A stretch of DNA of 10,339 bases from Chamaesiphon sp. Its GTDB lineage: Bacteria > Cyanobacteriota > Cyanobacteriia > Cyanobacteriales > Chamaesiphonaceae. The notes under the pieces are model-generated. The model saw only the letters and a list, made by a program, of their open reading frames with translations, searched no databases and was not told where the DNA came from. Shown here one piece after another: positions 529 to 10,339 of the stretch (its first letter is position 1; each line of letters opens with the position of its first letter). The stretch spans positions 1-10,339 of the forward strand of contig CBDFFH010000006.1 in assembly GCA_965246715.1 (NCBI GenBank), read 5' to 3'. Position numbers and translations under genes: made by a program.

Positions 529-2259
529 GTGAATCAACTTTGGGCATATTTAATCATTGAAGAATTGGTCAGAAATGCGATCGATTACTTTGTCATTTCG
601 CCGGGTTCTCGATCGACACCATTAACGGTCAGCGTGGCTCAAAACTCGTCAGCTCAACATATTATTTGTATAGACGAACGCGGTGCGGCATTTCATGCAG
701 TTGGCTACGCGCGTGCTACAGGCAAACCAGCCGTATTAATTTGTACCTCTGGCTCGGCTGCTGCTAACTATTTCCCCGCAGTAATCGAAGCAGCTACAGA
801 TGGTGTGCCGATGATAATACTATCTGCCGATCGACCGCCAGAATTGCGGCAGACGGGGGCAAATCAGACGATCGAGCAGGTGAATTTATATGGGGCATAC
901 CCCAACTGGCAATTCGATTTACCTTGCCCTACCGCCGAAATTGAGCCGAAAATGGTGTTGACGACGATCGATCTAGCCGTCGCTCGATCGCAACAATCTC
1001 CCAGTGGTGTGGTCCATCTCAATTGCATGTTTCGCGAACCATTAGCACCCACAACCGCACCGATCCACCTACCCCTGAGTTTGCAGCAATGGCAAATAAG
1101 TGGGGCTCCTTATACCCGTTATGCGGGTAAATTAACCATTCCGGCTGCTGTCGAAATCCAGTCTCTAATTAACATCATGCAACGCACGATTAAAGGCGTT
1201 GTGGTAGTAGGGCAACTAAAATCTGCGGTAGAAAGCAAAGCTGTATTGCGATTGGCAGCTAAGTTAAATTGGGCTGTGTTTGCTGATATTCAATCGGGGT
1301 TGCGATTGAGTGACGATTTGCCGAATTTAATCCATTATTTCGATCTATTATTACTCACAGATCGATCGATCTTACTCGATCGGATCGATACGGTAATTCA
1401 GTTCGGCACCAGAATCGTCTCTACCCGGTGGCTAAAATGGTTAGAGCAAAATCCGCCCATCCATTATGTCGCGATCGTTAATGATGCCGAACGTCACGAT
1501 CCCAGTCATTTAGTCTCACTGCGGATCGAAGCTGACATCGCCGAGCTGTGCACTCGATTAGCGCGAGATTTATTACCATCCTCGCAGTCGCCGTGGGTAC
1601 GCAAATTACGACAGGCTTCAGATCACATCGGGGTTTCAGTCGATAAATTTTTAAAAACCGCTAAATTAACCGAACCCTCGATCGCGCGAATTATCTCTCA
1701 ACTCATCCCCTCTCAGCATGGTTTATGGGTGGGGAATAGTATGCCGATTCGCGATCTAGATATGTATGGGGTCAAAGATAAAATCGGCTTACGGATTGGG
1801 GCAAATCGGGGCACGAGTGGGATTGAAGGTGCGATCGCTGCTGCAACAGGGTTTGCAGCGGGTTTACAAGCGCCAGTGACAGCAATTATCGGCGATTTAG
1901 CCAGTCTGCACGATTTAAATTCGCTGGCATTATTGCAGCGAAGTTTACAACCAGTAGTTGTCATCATTATTAACAACGATGGTGGCGGGATTTTTTCGTT
2001 CTTACCGATCGCTAAATCCACCGATATCTTCGAGCCTTATTTTGGCACCCCGCATGGCTTAAATTTCGCTCATGCAGCGGCAATGTTTGCGATCGACTAC
2101 TATCATCCACTCGATCGATCTGAGTTTATCGCCAATTATACCCAATCGTTAGAGCTTGGACGCACTGCCATCATTGAGGTCACAACCGATCGAGCTGAAA
2201 ATTGGCAATTCCATCAAGCTCTTCAGCAATATCTTCAGTTGAGAGAGGATAGGGGATAG
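529..2259 (+). CDS. menD: 2-succinyl-5-enolpyruvyl-6-hydroxy-3-cyclohexene-1-carboxylate synthase (MenD; phylloquinone/menaquinone pathway)
   Basis: 576 aa with MenD motifs ISPGSRSTPL, DERGAAF, CTSGSAAAN, ADRPPEL..GANQTI, VHLNCMFREPL, GNSMPIRD, NRGTSGIEG, the ThDP-binding GDLASLHDLN...NNDGGGIF and FGTPH. Confidence 0.97.
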   Translation: MNQLWAYLIIEELVRNAIDYFVISPGSRSTPLTVSVAQNSSAQHIICIDERGAAFHAVGYARATGKPAVLICTSGSAAANYFPAVIEAATDGVPMIILSADRPPELRQTGANQTIEQVNLYGAYPNWQFDLPCPTAEIEPKMVLTTIDLAVARSQQSPSGVVHLNCMFREPLAPTTAPIHLPLSLQQWQISGAPYTRYAGKLTIPAAVEIQSLINIMQRTIKGVVVVGQLKSAVESKAVLRLAAKLNWAVFADIQSGLRLSDDLPNLIHYFDLLLLTDRSILLDRIDTVIQFGTRIVSTRWLKWLEQNPPIHYVAIVNDAERHDPSHLVSLRIEADIAELCTRLARDLLPSSQSPWVRKLRQASDHIGVSVDKFLKTAKLTEPSIARIISQLIPSQHGLWVGNSMPIRDLDMYGVKDKIGLRIGANRGTSGIEGAIAAATGFAAGLQAPVTAIIGDLASLHDLNSLALLQRSLQPVVVIIINNDGGGIFSFLPIAKSTDIFEPYFGTPHGLNFAHAAAMFAIDYYHPLDRSEFIANYTQSLELGRTAIIEVTTDRAENWQFHQALQQYLQLREDRG

Positions 2260-2294
2260 GGAATAGGGAATAGGGAATAGGGAATAGGGAATAG
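2245..2294 (+). repeat. Heptamer tandem repeat (GGGAATA)5 plus two degenerate units; STRR-like
   Basis: GAGGATA GGGGATA followed by five perfect GGGAATA units (2259-2293). It overlaps the last codons and the TAG stop of menD. Confidence 0.92.
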
Positions 2295-2452
2295 TACTCG
2301 TTCACATTTCCTCATCTCAATCCTTAAATTAAGAGTGACAATCTAGTACTTTATGCTGAAACGCTCGGTTTTGAGTAACTCCGAGCGGAAATTAGGCGCA
2401 GTAGCGTGTAGCTATTTGACGAGAATATTTCTACTTTCTAAATTTAAAATAT

Positions 2453-3409
2453 ATGCGTACTTCCGATCGGTTAACGGCAATTTTGACAGGAACGGCAGTC
2501 GTTAGTGCGATCGTCATCACCTTGCCTCATGCGGCTCAAGCTTTGCCAGGTTCCCAGATTAATGACATTGCGCGGGAAGTAACTGTCTTAATTCGCGGCG
2601 AGCAGGGACATGGTTCTGGGGTAATCGTCAACAAAAAGGGTAGTACATACTATGTTTTAACTGCCGAACATGTAATCAGACAAAAAGATGACTTTAAACT
2701 TATAACAGCCGATAAGCAGGCATACACAATAGACTATAGCAAGATCGAAAAAATTAAGGGAGTCGATTTAGCGATCGTACCATTCACCAGCGATAAAAAT
2801 TACCAGACTGCAAAAATTAGCACCGCCAAAGCTAACGAAGGACAAGCGGTATATCTCTCTGGTTGGCCTTTAAATGGCGCAATCGGGAATGCGGCTGGGG
2901 GCGAGCTAGTTCGTCAATTTACCAGTGGTAGTATCTCTGCCTTCCTGCCCCAATCACTGAATGGTTATAGCATGATCTATACTAATGTCTCCCGTGCGGG
3001 GATGAGTGGTTGTCCAGTCCTGGACACTGCGGGCAGATTAGTTGGGATTCATGGCATGGGGGATAAAGAAGATCCGCATCAACTGATGGAATCCGGATTG
3101 AGTCAAGAAACGGCATCAGGTTTGGCTGCTAAAATCAAACCTGGATTTAACTATGCTGTGCCAATTGGTGTGTTCTTAGAACAGTCGCAATCTGTTGGGC
3201 TAGATGCCAATGCCCTGACGATCGATAAATCTGCCGCTCCAGAACCAGGTGAGGCTTATGTTGCTGGCGAGAAGCCAGATCCGCGTGATAAAATCGATGA
3301 TATCCAGATCACATTAAAAACGGTCAAAGGGATCACTAAAACTTTGAAGGATACTCGCGAAACAATCCAAGATTTCCGGGATACGATCCGCAATCCGTTT
3401 GGGTTCTAA
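2453..3409 (+). CDS. Trypsin-like (S1/Trypsin_2) serine protease with N-terminal signal peptide, no PDZ/TPR domain
   Basis: Hydrophobic N-terminus ending AQA, GSGVIV, and the catalytic triad motifs VLTAEHV (His), DLAIV (Asp) and AGMSGCPVL (Ser), followed by LVGIHG. Confidence 0.9.
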   Translation: MRTSDRLTAILTGTAVVSAIVITLPHAAQALPGSQINDIAREVTVLIRGEQGHGSGVIVNKKGSTYYVLTAEHVIRQKDDFKLITADKQAYTIDYSKIEKIKGVDLAIVPFTSDKNYQTAKISTAKANEGQAVYLSGWPLNGAIGNAAGGELVRQFTSGSISAFLPQSLNGYSMIYTNVSRAGMSGCPVLDTAGRLVGIHGMGDKEDPHQLMESGLSQETASGLAAKIKPGFNYAVPIGVFLEQSQSVGLDANALTIDKSAAPEPGEAYVAGEKPDPRDKIDDIQITLKTVKGITKTLKDTRETIQDFRDTIRNPFGF

Positions 3410-3460
3410 ATTAAATACTCAAATCAGCCGATCGACATTTAACTTAAATATTCAACAGTG

Positions 3461-3528
3461 GTGAGGGTAGGTTTTGCCGAGAAATGCCTGGTAAATATCG
3501 CATCATGCTTGCATAAACCTACCCCTAC
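3461..3528. repeat. REP-like GTAG-type palindromic element
   Basis: GTGAGGGTAGGTTT (3461-3474) and AAACCTACCCCTAC (3515-3528) form an inverted pair (12/14) around a 40-nt spacer. Confidence 0.65.
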
Positions 3529-3535
3529 AGATTCT

Positions 3536-3668
3536 GGCGTTGCTGATTTGAGGTATGAAATGCACAAATAATTTTTGTAGGGGTAATGCCTTGTGCTTAC
3601 CCCGCATCGATTCAGGGTACCCACGAGGGGCACCCCTACAAAAAATCATACATCATTTCAGCAATGCC
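3536..3668. mobile_element. MITE (133 bp), 23-bp TIRs, 8-bp target-site duplication CAGATTCT; possibly IS1-type ends
   Basis: Left end GGCGTTGCTGATTTGAGGTATGA (3536-3558) versus reverse complement of right end GGCATTGCTGAAATGATGTATGA (3646-3668): 19/23 match. CAGATTCT occurs at 3528-3535 and 3669-3676. An internal REP-like doublet spans 3572-3644. Confidence 0.9.
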
Positions 3669-3749
3669 CAGATTCTAACCTGAAGAATGAAATAGTCCTG
3701 TCTACTGTCCACTCAGCTAGATTAGGATAAGATAAACACTAGCAAGATT

Positions 3750-4340
3750 GTGCCTCAAGTTTCTCTAGATAATTTAATTATTGCGGCTAAAGCTGGTAAC
3801 TTAGTCAGCTTTCCCACCGATACCGTGCCTGCCCTCGCAACACTACCCGACTGCGCCGAATTAATATTTCAGACTAAACAGCGAAGTCAAGATAAGCCAC
3901 TGATTTTAATGGTGGGTGAAGTAGCCGATCTATGGCAATTTACGCAGGGAACCGATCTCGAAATTAAGATTTGGCAAGCAGTTGCCGATCGATATTTACC
4001 TGGTGCTTTAACTTTGGTTTTACCTGCATCAGCTCGCGTTCCAGTTGTGATGAATCCACTGAGGAATAATACAATTGGCGTGCGAGTTCCCGCCCACGCT
4101 CTCGCGAGATCGATCCTCGATCGTACAGGGGCTTTAGTAACTACTAGTGCTAATTTATCTGGTTGCCCGCCACTGTTGACAATGGCAGAAATTAGCGATA
4201 ATTTTCCTCAAGTGTTCACATTAGATGTTGGCGTTGATGCGGCGGAGCCAGCTCGATCTCAACCATCCACAGTGATTAAATGGACGGGTAATAGTTGGCA
4301 ATTACTCAGACAGGGTGCAATTAATTTTATCGGTGTTTAA
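3750..4340 (+). CDS. tsaC: L-threonylcarbamoyladenylate synthase (Sua5/YrdC/TsaC family)
   Basis: 196 aa with motifs SFPTDTVPAL, IFQTKQRSQDKPL, PGALTLVL, IGVRVP, TTSANLSG, PSTVI and LLRQG. Confidence 0.92.
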   Translation: MPQVSLDNLIIAAKAGNLVSFPTDTVPALATLPDCAELIFQTKQRSQDKPLILMVGEVADLWQFTQGTDLEIKIWQAVADRYLPGALTLVLPASARVPVVMNPLRNNTIGVRVPAHALARSILDRTGALVTTSANLSGCPPLLTMAEISDNFPQVFTLDVGVDAAEPARSQPSTVIKWTGNSWQLLRQGAINFIGV

Positions 4341-4344
4341 ATTA

Positions 4345-4505
4345 TAGCGATAGCCAAGGTCGTTAGGACGTTTTCTAATTAGTCTGCGAATGCAGACTTT
4401 GCATCACTAGCGGTACTCGCGTTGGCGCAAGCCTGCCGTAGGCACAGCGTATCCGATAGGATGGTTTCAATCGCTGTAGTGTCCTAACAGCCTTGGCAGT
4501 TGCTA
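4345..4505. mobile_element. MITE (~161 bp) with IS630/Tc1-type ends and TA target duplication
   Basis: TATAGCGATAGCCAAGGTCGTTAGGAC (4343-4369) versus reverse complement of 4481-4507, TATAGCAACTGCCAAGGCTGTTAGGAC: 22/27 match, with TA on both sides. Internal hairpins at 4381-4398, 4434-4444 and 4451-4462. Confidence 0.85.
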
Positions 4506-4528
4506 TATAATTTCGATCGTCCAACAAT

Positions 4529-6439
4529 GGGGTACAGCCGAGATACGGATACTGTTGGCGAATTCAAAAATCGATCGAGCGGGTGGGCAGACGGTCGGGT
4601 CAATGTGTGGATGAAAGTAGGTTGCCACTCAAACAACAACTCACAAATTTTGCGAGAGTATCGATCGGTTAAAATAAACTTATCGGATTGAGGTGAGCAT
4701 ATGTGTCTACATCCTGAATTAATTCCTCCCGTTCCAGAAATCACTGCCAAAGTAGCCAAAGCAGCATTCCCCAAAGGCAATAAATATATGCGGTTGAGAG
4801 ATGAGCTGGGAGTGTTTTACCAAGATGAAGAATTTGCTGAATTATATCCAAATCGAGGGCAGTCAGGAATTGCCCCCTGGCGATTAGTGATGATTCTAAT
4901 CATGCAGTTTTTAGAAAATCTATCAGACAGGCAAGCAGCGGATGCCGTCAGAGGAAGAATTGATTGGAAGTATGCGTTATCGCTAGAATTAGAAGATGAC
5001 GGATTTGACTTTTCAGTTTTAAGTGAATTCCGCGTTCGCTTGATATCAGGTGGCAGATCTCAACAAATCCTAGATAAAATGTTGTCTAAATTTGGAGAGT
5101 TAGGACTATTAAAATCAAAAGGAAAAGCGCGGACTGATTCAACTCACATTCTGGCAATTGTTCAAGAACTAACTAAAATAGGACATCTTGAAGAAACTTT
5201 AAAGTCTGCTTTAAATACACTAGCGAAAGTAGCTCCGAATTGGCTAGAGAGAATTATTGACAGTGATTGGTACGATCGCTACGGTCAAAAAGACGGATAT
5301 TCAAGAAAGACTAGAACTACCGAGGAAAAAGAAGCTAAAGCTATTGAGATTGGAACTGATGGTTTCTACCTACTTGAAGCGATCTACCATGAGACTACTC
5401 CCGATGCAATCCGCCAAATCCAGGCAGTAGAAGTACTACGTCAAGTCTGGCTCCAGCAATATTATGCACCCACAGAAGGAACAGTTCTACTACGGACAGA
5501 AAAAGATGGCCCACCTAATGCCACCAGAATTTTTTCCCCTTATGAGACTGAAGCTCGTAAAAGTATCAAACGCTCTACCAAATGGACTGGTTATAAAGTT
5601 CATTTAACCGAAACTTGTGAGGAAGATTTACCACATTTAATTACTCATGTCGAAACTACGGTAGCGACAACGCAAGATTCTACAGTTTTACCTTCAATTC
5701 ATAAGGCTTTGGCAGAAAAGGAAGTTTTACCTCAATATCATTTAGTTGATATGGGCTATACTTCTGCACAGTTAATTGTCAGTAGCCAACAAGAATATGA
5801 CATCGATTTGGTTGGCCCAGTTGCTCTAAATGCTCAATGGCAAGCTAAAGAAGAAGCAGGATTCGATTTGTTTAGCTTTCAAGTTAATTGGAAACGAAAA
5901 GTGGTTTATTGCCCACAAGGTAAACGTAGTCGGCTCTGGAAAAATAGTCATGATGCTTATGGAAAACCAACAATCCATGTTGAATTTAGTAAAAGTGACT
6001 GTTCTGCTTGTCCGGTGCGTAGTCAATGCACTCGTGCTCCTGTCAATCCGCGTGGTTTAACTTTTATGATTCAAGCAGATTATGAGGCTTTAGTTAATGC
6101 TCGTGCCAGACAAAAAACGGCAGAATTCAAGCAAGAATATTCTTTGCGATCGGGAATTGAAGGGACTATCTCTCAAGGTATTCGTGGTTTTAATTTACGC
6201 AAGTGTCGTTATATTGGATTAGAAAAAACTCGGCTTCAACATACTTTGACCGCAGCAGCGATGAATCTAGAGCGGATTTATGCTTGGCTCGAAGAGATTC
6301 CTCTGGCTCAAACTCGCCGTTCTCATTTTGAAAAAATGGCTCGTCGGAAGCGCGTGACCTGAATCGCCAGCGTTTCGCAATCGCCAGAACCGATCGATTT
6401 TTGAATTCGCCAACAGTATCCGTATCTCGGCTGTACCCC
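4529..6439 (+). mobile_element. IS1182-family insertion sequence bounded by a perfect 49-bp inverted repeat
   Basis: 4529-4577 GGGGTACAGCCGAGATACGGATACTGTTGGCGAATTCAAAAATCGATCG is the exact reverse complement of 6391-6439 and encloses the transposase. The IS proper may be 4548-6420 (see findings). There is no direct repeat outside 4529/6439. Confidence 0.9.
4701..6362 (+). CDS. IS1182-family DDE transposase, apparently intact
   Basis: 553 aa. It has a DUF772-like N-terminus (LSDRQAADAVRGRIDWKYAL...FDFSVLSEFR), RTDSTH, GYKVHLTET, LVDMGY, a Cys cluster CPQG...CSACPVRSQC and YSLRSGIEGTISQ...RYIGLEK. RBS GAGGTG lies upstream. Confidence 0.93.
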   Translation: MCLHPELIPPVPEITAKVAKAAFPKGNKYMRLRDELGVFYQDEEFAELYPNRGQSGIAPWRLVMILIMQFLENLSDRQAADAVRGRIDWKYALSLELEDDGFDFSVLSEFRVRLISGGRSQQILDKMLSKFGELGLLKSKGKARTDSTHILAIVQELTKIGHLEETLKSALNTLAKVAPNWLERIIDSDWYDRYGQKDGYSRKTRTTEEKEAKAIEIGTDGFYLLEAIYHETTPDAIRQIQAVEVLRQVWLQQYYAPTEGTVLLRTEKDGPPNATRIFSPYETEARKSIKRSTKWTGYKVHLTETCEEDLPHLITHVETTVATTQDSTVLPSIHKALAEKEVLPQYHLVDMGYTSAQLIVSSQQEYDIDLVGPVALNAQWQAKEEAGFDLFSFQVNWKRKVVYCPQGKRSRLWKNSHDAYGKPTIHVEFSKSDCSACPVRSQCTRAPVNPRGLTFMIQADYEALVNARARQKTAEFKQEYSLRSGIEGTISQGIRGFNLRKCRYIGLEKTRLQHTLTAAAMNLERIYAWLEEIPLAQTRRSHFEKMARRKRVT

Positions 6440-6440
6440 T

Positions 6441-6653
6441 AAACCATCTGATTGTTGTACTGGATTTCGCCCACTCCCAAGCCGTTTTGACACCCTGCTC
6501 GAATAGTCTGGCATTCTTGACCCCTGCTTGTGCGCCGATCCAGTACCGAGTTTCCCTTTCGATAAAATGGATTGTCCATCCTTTACTGGCTGAGGGGGAA
6601 AGGTTCTCGCCTACGCGAGTATATACTTCGTCTCCCTCTATTGTTACCTCTGC
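6441..6653 (-). pseudogene. Internal fragment of an IS1-family-like DDE transposase
   Basis: Manual minus-strand translation AEVTIEGDEVYTRVGENLSPSASKGWTIHFIERETRYWIGAQAGVKNARLFEQGVKTAWEWAKSSTTIRWF. The EGDExYTRVG motif resembles the first catalytic Asp region of cyanobacterial IS1-like transposases. There is no start codon, and the fragment ends at the 49-bp IR. Confidence 0.7.
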
Positions 6654-6656
6654 TCA

Positions 6657-6760
6657 GTGCCTTATTACTGACTATGGCATTGCGTTATGGTGGACGGCAA
6701 TGGTGATGACGACAATCGGATCTGACTAGATCGCCGCGAAGGTTCGACAGTATTTTGCCA
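6657..6760 (+). pseudogene. Fragment of an ion-transporter / K+-channel-family gene (pore helix)
   Basis: Reads LITDYGIALWWTAMVMTTIGSD*, resembling the ALWWTAMxMTTxGSxY pore region of bacterial Ion_trans_2 proteins, then a stop and degeneration. Confidence 0.6.
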
Positions 6761-6889: not shown

Positions 6890-7354
6890 ATGTTAGACAT
6901 TGATGAAATGAGTTCTCAAGAAATCTACGAACTCTTACGCAAAGTCGGCTACGGACATCTTGGCTTCATCCATGAAGGGAAACCCTATGTGATGCCAATG
7001 CATTATTACATTGAAAATGAAAATATTTATCTGTTTACCACGGAGGGAATGAAGACTCATGACATTGATGCTAGTCCAGAAATCTGCCTCCAAGTCGAAG
7101 AAATAATTGACGATCCGCTCCACTGGCGCAGTGTAATCGTAGCAGGGCAAGCCAAACGATTGACCGAGAAAACAGATATCGAACGAGTACAAAAATTAAT
7201 TAAAGAGATTAATCCGACACTTTCTCCCGCGCTCAATCGCACTTGGATTGACTCGTGGGGACGGGCAGAAGTAGTGGCGCTCTATCGCGTCTATCCGAGC
7301 GAAATGAGCGGGCGCACGACTGATGGTGTCAGCAGTCGAATAATGGTTGGATGA
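6890..7354 (+). CDS. Pyridoxamine 5'-phosphate oxidase-family (NimA-like) flavin-binding protein
   Basis: 154 aa with GYGHLG...PYVMPMHY...IYLFTTEGMK...PEICLQVE...WRSVIVAG...MSGR. AGGAG RBS at 6878-6882. Confidence 0.88.
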   Translation: MLDIDEMSSQEIYELLRKVGYGHLGFIHEGKPYVMPMHYYIENENIYLFTTEGMKTHDIDASPEICLQVEEIIDDPLHWRSVIVAGQAKRLTEKTDIERVQKLIKEINPTLSPALNRTWIDSWGRAEVVALYRVYPSEMSGRTTDGVSSRIMVG

Positions 7355-7422
7355 ATAAATCGATGCTCACAATGAAAGGCTCTTGGTTACGAACCGACTA
7401 ATTTAGTTGAGGCAACAGACTT

Positions 7423-8290
7423 ATGGTTTCTCCAGTCATTCGGCTAGAAACTACACAATCCGTGGCTGGCTTATCCGCTCGAGACGCAATCGCCAAGCTC
7501 GATCGCGATGGCTATTCGGTTGGTGAGTCGCTTATTTGGGATTGCTTTAGCCAATAGTCCGGACAGTTTTTCAGAAAACGTCTGAAGCCCTTGATTTCTC
7601 GTCAGTCGTTTCACCGTAGAATAAGGCTGAAACCCTTGCTCTATCGTCACCACTCTAAAAGTGTCCGGAGTATTGTTAGCGTTATGTGTGGCAATTGTCC
7701 TAATTTATGGAGCTACCACTGGAGATTGGATCAAAGGAGTCCTCGCCGGGATTACGCTGGCGATGGCAATTTTGCCGAATGAATTTCCAGTCGTTGTGAC
7801 GATCTTTCTCGCCTTGGGAGCTTGGCGGATTTCACAACATCACGTTTTAGCACGTCGTACTTCTGCTGTTGAAACAGTTGGTTCGGCAACTGTTTTATGT
7901 GTGGATAAGACAGGGACACTGACGCTAAATCAGATGGCTGTGCAGCAGTTATTCGCCTATAACCATCCCGAAAATCCTCAGCCTTACGATTTAGCATTAC
8001 ACTCACGAGTGCCACTCCCTGAGTCGGTTCACGAGCTAGTCGAGTTCTGTATTCTCGCCAGCCAAAGAGATCCATTCGATCCGATGGAGAAGGCATTTAA
8101 GGAATTGGGAGATCGATCCTTAGCAAATACCGAACATTTGCACAACGATTGGATGCTATTAAAGGCATACCCACTCTCACCGGAGTTGTTGGCGATGTCC
8201 CATGTTTGGCAGTCAGCAGATGAGAAACAGTATGAAATTGCTACCAAAGGCGCACCGGAAGCGATCGCCGATCTCTGTCATTTTACGCCT
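7423..8290 (+). pseudogene. Cation-translocating P-type ATPase, N-terminal half (paralogue A), fragmented
   Basis: 7423-7515 encodes MVSPVIRLETTQSVAGLSARDAIAKLDRDGY (Cation_ATPase_N-like). It then jumps with a frameshift to RLVSRLFGIAL (7517-7551), is interrupted by a MITE, and resumes with ALCVAIV...AMAILPNEFPVV...SAVETVGSATVLCVDKTGTLT...DPFDPME...KGAPEAI. It is cut off at ~8290 by the IS110 remnant. Confidence 0.9.
7552..7675. mobile_element. MITE (124 bp), 19-bp TIRs, 5-bp target-site duplication TTAGC
   Basis: CAATAGTCCGGACAGTTTT (7552-7570) versus reverse complement of 7657-7675, CAATACTCCGGACACTTTT: 17/19 match. TTAGC occurs at 7547-7551 and 7676-7680. Excision restores the ATPase frame (FGIALALCVAIV). 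Confidence 0.93.
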
Positions 8291-9036
8291 TCTAATCCAT
8301 CAATTTGAGTAAAATCTATGCCACTAATTCGATAGAGATGGGAGCGCAGATCGAAATTAGGGGCATTGCGGCTAGGCTTCTTACCTTTAGGTCTCGGTGG
8401 GAGTGGCTCGTCACTTTGGCTATCAAACTGTGACAAACACTGTTCGATCTGTAGGTCGCATTGTTGAATTTGCTGTTGATAGGTATCATACAAACTCAAT
8501 TCCTGTTTGAGTACAAATAGATGCTCCTCTCGGTAATCTCCGACTAGTGCTGCGGCGATTTCGGCAATACTGCGTTTAGCACGAGGATCTTTCAATGCTG
8601 CCAATCGCTGTGGGTCGCGCTCCCCTGACAGAATGGCTCGAATAATTGCCATTCCAGTTACTCCGGTAACATCACTGACCACCCGATGCAACTGTACATT
8701 CATTTCGGTCAAGGCTTTTTGCATCCGCTGAATATGAACGCTAGCACTTTTAGTGAGACGGTCACGCTGTCGGATATAACTGCGAAATACGCATACTTGG
8801 TCATCAGGAGGAATCCAATATACTCCGGTTGATTCCATTGCTACTGTGGTAATCCCTCTCGACTTTAGCCATTCGGCTATGGCATACAGGTCGGCGGTGA
8901 AACAGCTAAATTTACGAACTGGTTCTGGATCTAATTCTGCTGGGATACTGACCCAATGCTCTGATCCTCCAATATCTATTCCTGCTGCTTTGGGATGAAC
9001 TTGCGCTAGTTCCGGTTCTACTTTTGGTCTCACCAT
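8290..9036 (-). pseudogene. IS110-family DEDD recombinase/transposase, internally deleted and C-terminally truncated
   Basis: AAGIDIG and VAMESTGVYWIP supply the first two catalytic residues and are fused directly to PDDQVCV..RQR. The LVN...GRKxDxxD segment is missing (junction 8808/8809). The frame ends after FTQIDGL, so the C-terminal domain is absent. AGGAGG RBS at 9042-9047. Confidence 0.92.
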
Positions 9037-9065
9037 TTTTTCCTCCTTTTGGGTGAAGAATAATT

Positions 9066-9212
9066 GCTCTGACCTGAGTTGGTCGCTGTAAAGTCTTCTA
9101 AACGGGATAGGATGATTATTCCTTCGCCAATCTCATTACCACGTAGCTCAGAACCATGCTCCGTATCGGGCTGCTATCGCACCAGTGAGGCTTCGGTCTT
9201 AACTGTCAGAAC
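9066..9212 (-). ncRNA. Candidate IS110 bridge/seek RNA in the non-coding end upstream of the recombinase
   Basis: About 147 nt closed by the stem GTTCTGAC (9212-9205) / GTCAGAGC (9073-9066). It contains two similar internal modules (CTGGTGC..GCCCGATACGGAGC and TTGGCG..TCCCGTTTAGAAGA), with a -10-like TATGCT just upstream (9226-9221). The position matches IS110 non-coding ends. Confidence 0.6.
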
Positions 9213-9305
9213 ATAGATATAGCATAATTGCTTGCCAGTATTCTCAAGCAGTTTCTTTCACCCATTAGACTACGTTTTTCGTTGGCTCTATTGCTCCGAA
9301 TGAGA

Positions 9306-10339
9306 ATCGTCAAATGTTATCAAGCCGGAATTCAGGTCACGATGGTGACGGGAGATTATGGACTTACCGCTCAAGCGATCGCCCAACAAATCGGCATAGT
9401 AGAGGGTAAAGCCAGAATCGTTACAGGCGAAGAGATGGGACATCTTTCGGATGCTCAATTAGCACAGATCTTGCACCAAAAATCTGGGTTGATTTTCGCC
9501 CGCATCCAGCCCGAACAGAAGTTAAAGCTGGTGCAGGCTTATATCAGAATGGGTCATGTCGTCGCCATGACAGGCGATGGCGTAAATGATGCACCCGCCT
9601 TGAGAGCCGCCAATATCGGGATTGCGATGGGGCTAAACGGTACCGATGTAGCGCGGGAAGCAGCCGATCTCGTGCTGATTGATGATAACTTCGCGACAAT
9701 AGTCAGTGCGATCGAGCAGGGACGAGCGGTTTATCAAAATATTCGCAAGTTTATCACCTATATCCTTTCCTCCAACATCCCAGAATTGCTGCCTTTCCTA
9801 GCGATGGTCTTTTGCAAGATTCCTCCCGCGCTAGTTATCTTGCAAATTCTCGCGATCGATCTCGGTACAGATATGCTACCAGCTCTAGCGTTGGGCGCAG
9901 AACCACCCGAAGCAGGTACCTTGCTGCAACCTCCCCGTAAAAAGTCCCAACAATTACTGGATAAGTCGTTGCTGCTCCGGGCTTTTCTCTTTCTCGGATT
10001 GCTCGAAGGGGTGGCAGGGATGAGCGGGTTTTTCCTAGTTTGGTGGTCAAATGGCTATGGGATAAATGAGTTGCGATCGCTCAATTTTTCGGCTAGGCTT
10101 TTTTAGTAACCCTTCGATCTGGCTGGGTATTGCGGCTGAATTGGCACTGATTCTAGCGATTATTTATATCCCACCCTTACAAAAAGTTTTTGGCACCGCA
10201 CCGTTATCCGCATGGCAATGGTCGGTACTAATTATTTGCCCACCATTAATTCTGGTAGCTGATGAAATCCGCAAGTCGATCGCGGCTAGGAATACAGATC
10301 GAGATCGTGTAGCGATCGCCAATAAGTCGGTGGGTGCAA
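9306..10339 (+). pseudogene. Cation-transporting P-type ATPase (type II), C-terminal half (paralogue B), N-truncated and frameshifted
   Basis: IVKCYQAGIQVTMVTGDYGLTA...FARIQPEQK...AMTGDGVNDAPAL...DDNFATIV...SSNIPE...ILAIDLGTD. From 10078 the +1 frame continues RSIFRLGFFSNPSIWLGIAAE...QKVFGTAPL...DEIRK and is open to the window edge. The first ~26 aa of ORF 9228 are non-homologous IS/flank sequence. Confidence 0.9.

Follow-up and report, generated by a model that had tools for sequence, protein, structure and literature searches.

An IS1182-family element between two Tn3-family transposon tips in Chamaesiphon, and probable targeting of Tn3 ends by its lineage

A two-layered inverted repeat in a Chamaesiphon contig

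The window, as we call the whole stretch of DNA analysed here (10,339 nucleotides from Chamaesiphon sp.), makes up the entire contig C6 of assembly G000. A search of the window for inverted pairs returned 64 pairs. In the longest, the 49-nt arms (4529-4577 and 6391-6439) show 100% complementarity; the runner-up measures 29 nt at 76%. The arms enclose an intact transposase gene, in agreement with a previous sequence-only reading of this DNA that had described a perfect 49/49 inverted repeat around an IS1182 element and had taken the repeat to be two-layered. The layering is likewise borne out: the insertion sequence (IS) ends at 4548 and 6420, and the outer 19 bp are separate sequence. The features of the locus are as follows.

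3750..4340, forward strand: tsaC-like gene forming the left context (TIGR00057, 107.7 bits, below the cut-off of 123.2)
4508..4528, forward strand: spacer after tsaC, whose homology to genome G002 extends exactly to the point of Tn3 insertion
4529..4547, forward strand: left tip, formed by the 19 outermost bp of a Tn3-family terminal inverted repeat; intact ends adjoin PF01526 transposases, and the site is empty in G002
4548..4577, forward strand: IS1182 left inverted repeat, with the true IS end at 4548
4701..6362, forward strand: IS1182-family DDE transposase, intact, 553 aa (NCBIfam NF033551; Pfam DUF772 and DDE_Tnp_1_6)
6391..6420, reverse strand: IS1182 right inverted repeat, with the true IS end at 6420
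6421..6439, reverse strand: right tip, formed by the 19 outermost bp of another Tn3-family terminal repeat and having the same sequence as the left tip
6440..6655, reverse strand: transposase fragment, presumably IS1-like, cut by the Tn3 tip just before a conserved TDG

Assignment to the IS1182 family follows from the product of the open reading frame at 4701-6362, which scores 336 bits against NCBIfam NF033551 (cut-off 270), and from the terminal inverted repeats flanking the gene, which are perfect over 30 bp; the IS proper spans 4548-6420 (1873 bp). Invariance across 18 alignment rows points to D146, D350 and E487 as candidate catalytic residues, and invariance also suggests a four-cysteine motif. 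The structure model of the transposase is of low confidence (pLDDT 66), and a fold search with it gave no match at E<=0.001; its best rows, a piggyBat transposase (E 0.003) and RNase H-like nucleases, were not counted as evidence. A sequence search for a relative of solved structure returned none.

A deleted IS copy on contig C36, 92% alike, ends at the bases matching 4548 and 6420 and has a 7-bp direct repeat, full-length copies in G005, G013 and G034 also measure 1873 bp and have other flanks, and contigs from public runs (X1, X5, X15 and X16) either end or depart from the window sequence at positions 4548 and 6420. Because copies and run contigs alike end at the inner bases, we conclude that the IS repeat is 30 bp long and that the outer 19 bp are target DNA. 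At three loci (L036, 868; L040, 1303-1355; L221, 1883) an IS end is duplicated in short tandem, as if the IS inserted into its own end, which resembles the duplicated left end reported for IS1272.

The outer layer corresponds to positions 1-19 of a Tn3-family terminal repeat. The sequence-only reading had proposed a separate GGGG-type transposon end and suggested searching for other elements ending in it, and that search led to Tn3-family ends. Fifteen of the family's 39 genomes contain the outer-layer pattern, as do at least 118 stretches of the genome collection, many of them by chance; many matches run on into a conserved AT-rich inner part in place of the IS, and the 19 bp recur unchanged in three loci (L100, L137 and L144). 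Intact, GGGG-starting ends with this tip lie some 50-160 bp from Tn3 transposases, and 7 of the 21 proteins scanned near such ends match Pfam PF01526 at 457-501 bits; a tyrosine recombinase adjoins one such end. When ends were read downstream of 28 Tn3 matches in the genus, leaving the window motif unused, they included the sequences that flank the IS, one of them a single base off the window tip, while another common end type of the genus was never found beside an IS end. Since only bp 1-19 of a full end of about 38 bp are left in the window, its tips are a relic and not a working Tn3 end. In annotation, the 45-49-bp "long IRs" of these elements should be split into an IS end and a Tn3 tip. 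In a Bacillus record, a reading frame close to a Tn3-type end (L103, 3720-6545) matches binary-toxin B domains.

The two tips mark two different insertion sites, one in the spacer after tsaC and the other in the middle of the IS1-like gene. In G002 the site after tsaC is empty and is followed by hpf and thrB. The fragment at 6440..6655, which we take to be IS1-like from a sequence motif, returned no match in a family search, its label being supported by a full relative in L045; it is cut exactly at 6439/6440, where relatives and runs X15 and X16 have the gene intact and continue with ...IRWFTDG..., so that the breakpoint noted in the earlier reading is real. That reading had also called the left flank unrelated and the target duplication missing, and the flanks of the two tips do come from different loci, with no 5-bp Tn3 duplication outside the window's tips.

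The window contig probably derives from a second population, perhaps outside the genome of G000, as judged from the recurrence of menD, the protease gene and tsaC elsewhere in G000 at 76-78% identity. We found no Tn3 transposase in G000 and no copy of the outer 17-mer besides the two in the window (up to two mismatches), though a profile scan picked up a few degenerate ends; the lack of a transposase says little if C6 belongs to a second population. For the same reason, a search for the partner half of the tsaC-side insertion was uninformative, with hpf-thrB of G000 lying in another context and showing no Tn3 or IS trace. Further observations on the window include second copies in G000, at 68-78% identity, of menD, protease, tsaC and flavin-binding genes (529-4340 and 6890-7354); a palindromic MITE-like repeat after tsaC (4343-4507), absent in G002 and with many partial copies in G000; a second palindromic repeat of about 135 bp (3532-3674) with many copies in G000 at 88-92%; a 67-bp repeat just beyond the IS1-like fragment (6662-6728), common in relatives; and a P-type ATPase-like gene in pieces (7380-10339), interrupted at about 8278-9309 by a broken IS110-family element.

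Insertion preference of IS1182 clades for Tn3-family ends

IS ends were gathered by IS letters alone, and those with less than 25-30 bp of flank were left out of the counts; all figures are among the matches listed, the target labels are patterns written after the flanks had been seen, and related copies are not independent. Among 33 distinct ends of the close clade, 16 have GGG exactly at position -19 (background 0.011), and none of the same 33 has it at -14 to -17 or -20 to -24. A further 6 border directly on the repeat's inner half, and 11 lie at degenerate or unrelated sites, most of which share the 7-bp core. A target profile trained on ends beside confirmed transposases and applied to 51 looser IS ends called 27, compared with 0-1 at shifts of 1-8 bp and 5 at a shift of 10 bp, again among the matches listed. 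Insertions that have the outer half of the repeat at one IS end and its inner half at the opposite end show 6-7-bp duplications, the 7-bp stretch duplicated by simple insertions being represented in the window by 4541-4547, inside the left tip. Derivatives of about 100 bp that lack the gene occur in the same register (L062, L334 and L069). The flank comparison suggested by the sequence-only reading thus gave other flanks and recurrent Tn3 ends, and no long terminal repeat.

These data make it very probable that the IS lineage inserts at positions 13-19 of Tn3 terminal repeats through sequence targeting. The targeting is a preference and is not exclusive, 67 of the 109 two-ended copies of the wider group having a Tn3 end on neither flank among the matches listed. 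Some members of the window's clade (L460, L484, L485 and L505) lie in other repeats, which are not Tn3 ends, with 7-bp duplications and a passenger gene aboard.

A tree of 52 transposases, 45 of them distinct, recovers three clades with 100/99-100 support. End type 1 occurs in 7 of the 14 rows of the clade that includes the window, the other 7 being away from Tn3 ends; type 2 occurs in 7 of the 12 rows of the second clade and type 3 in 6 of the 7 rows of the third, and none of these clades contains another type. A fourth transposase clade has none of its 10 rows at Tn3 end types. No clade mixes end types, a clustering that relatedness inflates. In the transposase alignment, residues 195-215 and 280-295 vary from clade to clade. 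In G060 and G001 the type 2 end lies next to a Tn3 transposase, while type 3 is less firmly assigned to Tn3, because a Tn3 fragment lies nearby in only 1 of 16 loci.

Target choice is likely encoded by the transposase protein, since end type follows clade, the gene-less derivatives share the register and the IS non-coding DNA holds no guide-like match to the target, the longest being 6 nt, which equals the mode of shuffled sequences. That non-coding DNA matched no Rfam family either, and a split guide RNA may still be involved. Three clades with nearly the same ends and three defined targets amount to a natural swap experiment on the target specificity of DDE transposases. The mechanism of IS1182 is listed as unknown in one source (PMC6199540, in excerpt), and the mechanisms of the family are described as varied in another (PMC12056078, in excerpt); target choice in IS1182 is poorly understood, which gives defined, clade-specific targets their value. 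An IS1182 lineage residing in Tn3 ends represents one mobile element parasitising another, whereby Tn3 ends would be frozen, interiors erased or Tn3 cargo passed to an IS composite.

Origin of the tip-IS-tip arrangement

We sorted 109 two-ended copies, completing the classification by hand after dropping L382 (false tip call on the right flank) and L505 (false on both sides). Among the matches listed, 9 of the 109 are simple insertions with outer and inner halves and a 6-7-bp duplication, with 4 more having one side under threshold; 10 are clear tip-IS-tip loci (the window, L036, L038, L069, L466, L472, L473, L477, L504 and L506), and 4 unclear ones (L468, L480, L240 and L272) were kept apart; 2 have the reciprocal inner-IS-inner form; and about 10 combine one Tn3 side with one unrelated side. 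Three of the 14 tip-IS-tip loci listed (L466, L504 and L506) retain a 5-bp duplication outside both tips, which indicates that a single Tn3 element lost its whole interior. Two of the three are on complete plasmids: L504 is plasmid epsilon of the laboratory strain Nostoc PCC 7120, and L506, from a Tolypothrix plasmid, has the same sequence in each of three complete records. Absent outer duplications say little, because only 1 of 7 intact two-ended Tn3-type elements has one. Besides its tip-IS-tip relic, plasmid epsilon holds a type-1 end with a simple insertion (L504, 1090-2474 and 4839-7237).

The tip-IS-tip form of the window probably arose when an IS inserted into one Tn3 repeat and the DNA between it and a second repeat was then lost. 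In the first step, an IS1182 element would insert at bp 13-19 of one Tn3 terminal repeat with a 7-bp duplication; in the second, the resident IS could attack another Tn3 end intramolecularly or, alternatively, two same-direction IS copies in two Tn3 ends could recombine. A rearrangement before or together with the deletion is suggested here by the two tips bordering different sites: either the Tn3 element would have rearranged its own flanks before the IS took the interior, or two occupied ends would have recombined, the rearrangement being driven by Tn3 or by the IS. That tip-IS-tip loci outnumber the reciprocal form would fit deletions that lose a circular product.

Such an insertion would immobilise the Tn3 end by parting the cleavage end from the main transposase-binding part. 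In the Tn4430 structure, the main specificity domain recognises bp 21-36, and bp 1-6 form the cleavage end (PMC9579193, in excerpt); as an insertion at bp 13-19 separates the two, the tips are likely inert. The insertion likely disables the host Tn3 transposon, and the insertion habit likely often deletes its interior.

An unlikely alternative to insertion followed by deletion is replacement in one step, in which one transpososome joins the same position in both Tn3 repeats and drops the interior, along the lines of the stem-loop replacement put forward for IS1272, which deletes inverted-repeat targets (PMC5678879 and PMC4923244, both in excerpt). Clear tip-IS-tip loci are about as common as simple insertions among the matches listed, three of them keep the outer 5-bp duplication and two-ended mini-elements of 140-350 bp exist, all of which such a mechanism would accommodate. 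However, simple insertions with 7-bp duplications and a doubly occupied element already supply all the intermediates of the two-step route, and L038 joins tips of two different end types. Later rearrangement is moreover common anyway, as 35 of the 67 copies away from Tn3 ends lack a duplication among the matches listed.

The doubly occupied element, L572 (G602:C6, 1421-10655), is a 9.2-kb Tn3-type element without a transposase that has a 5-bp duplication and identical IS1182 copies in both ends. It is the expected intermediate in inverted orientation, such that recombination between its copies would invert, not delete, the DNA between them; same-direction double occupancy of a Tn3 element was not seen among the matches listed. 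L572 also constitutes a ready-made IS composite around Tn3 cargo. A broader proposition, which we regard as doubtful, is that the IS1182 radiation consists of protein-guided Tn3 hunters, one end type per clade, that engage both ends and either replace the interior in one step or fill both ends to yield an IS1182 composite.

Assembly error is a distinctly less likely account of the window, in which both junctions are real and the assembler linked flanks of two different IS copies. The left junction is present without differences in a contig of run X16 (4457-4558, reaching 30 letters beyond the outer edge of the tip), and X16 belongs to the same study as X15, which may be the source sample of the window contig; no contig of the public runs spans the whole element. 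Contig depth over the IS in both runs is 13-14, about twice that of the flanks (~7-10), X15 contains other tip-IS junctions and the window flanks come from different loci, as a mis-join would predict. Against it, the assembly resolves near-identical repeats of up to 5.4 kb inside contigs, with 1744 of 1746 long repeat matches internal, and the tip-IS-tip form also occurs in complete plasmids. The targeting result would be untouched even by a mis-join.

We consider it very unlikely that, as the sequence-only reading had offered among its mechanisms, the IS entered an empty 36-bp palindromic mini-element at its midpoint, duplicated 2 bp and formed a composite that a Tn3 transposase could move. 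An IS1182 relative of another clade does lie within a hairpin formed by a pair of type-2 Tn3 tips and shows a 7-bp duplication (L468 / L536, 1888-3762), and three tip-IS-tip loci have Tn3-type 5-bp duplications. Yet no empty palindrome was found in 8.2 Mb (2.0 Mb of loci and the 6.1-Mb assembly, up to four mismatches), the apparent CG duplication is an accident of symmetry in a lineage that duplicates 7 bp, and the tips lack bp 21-36 read by TnpA (PMC9579193, in excerpt). A mobile composite akin to a TIME would occur at several sites, and the same tip-IS-tip unit was found at no second site in a small sample of nine genomes and one plasmid search. Hardly credible, finally, are the remaining suggestions of an IS that duplicates one of its flanks in inverted form or whose genuine end is 49 bp long: tips are identical at the window, L466, L473 and L477, but IS copies with 92-95% similarity have their ends at the inner base and lie in other flanks, the identity breaks off precisely at the Tn3 terminus, and the tips of L504 and L506 differ inside one Tn3 5-bp duplication and so were not copied from one flank.

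Comparison with known systems

The paired Tn3-type ends found 140-350 bp apart in relatives resemble TIMEs, which are short, carry no genes, have Tn3-type ends and show 5-6-bp duplications (PMC4133298, in excerpt), and such elements are likely hosts of the IS. By comparison with TIMEs, the window retains just 19 bp of each end, and the mobility of the cyanobacterial elements in trans is putative.

IS4321 and IS5075, of the IS1111 group in the IS110 family, insert at a fixed place in the terminal repeats of Tn21-type (Tn3-family) transposons (PMC5001619, in excerpt), and the window lineage likewise hits a fixed place in Tn3-family ends. The IS110 family consists of RNA-guided recombinases (see PMC11208160), whereas the window lineage has a DDE transposase, makes 6-7-bp duplications, shows no guide-like match and displays three clade-specific end types with frequent interior loss. 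Family searches returned no IS110-family match for the window transposase, which therefore shares with IS1111-type elements neither the recombinase nor a non-coding guide matching the target.

In Staphylococcus, the IS1182-family elements IS1272 and TnSha1 use inverted-repeat targets and lose target DNA without making a duplication, and the targets of IS1272, 21-85 bp long, share structure and not sequence (PMC5678879 and PMC4923244, both in excerpt). The window element belongs to the same family and has in common with IS1272 the inverted-repeat targets and the duplication-free products with target DNA lost. Unlike IS1272, which is marked by the absence of both duplication and target consensus, its lineage uses a sequence register in the end of another element, with a clear consensus, and its simple insertions duplicate 7 bp.

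IS231A, of the IS4 family, reportedly prefers the ends of the Tn3-family transposon Tn4430, and is thus also a DDE element in Tn3-family ends, although it differs in family and host; we know of no radiation by clade and end type, nor of interior replacement, for IS231A. Duplication-free IS insertions with deletions have been described (10.1101/2024.06.02.596822, in excerpt), and the available portions of three further sources (PMC3281130, 10.1101/2025.04.28.651035 and 10.1101/2025.07.22.666184) contain nothing on IS1182 in Tn3 ends. The literature searched contained no report of IS1182 in Tn3 ends, and a prior mention in ISfinder, TnCentral or reviews is possible. Transposon-end targeting as such is known; what appears new is a lineage of DDE IS1182 elements with clade-specific targets and recurrent loss of the transposon interior.
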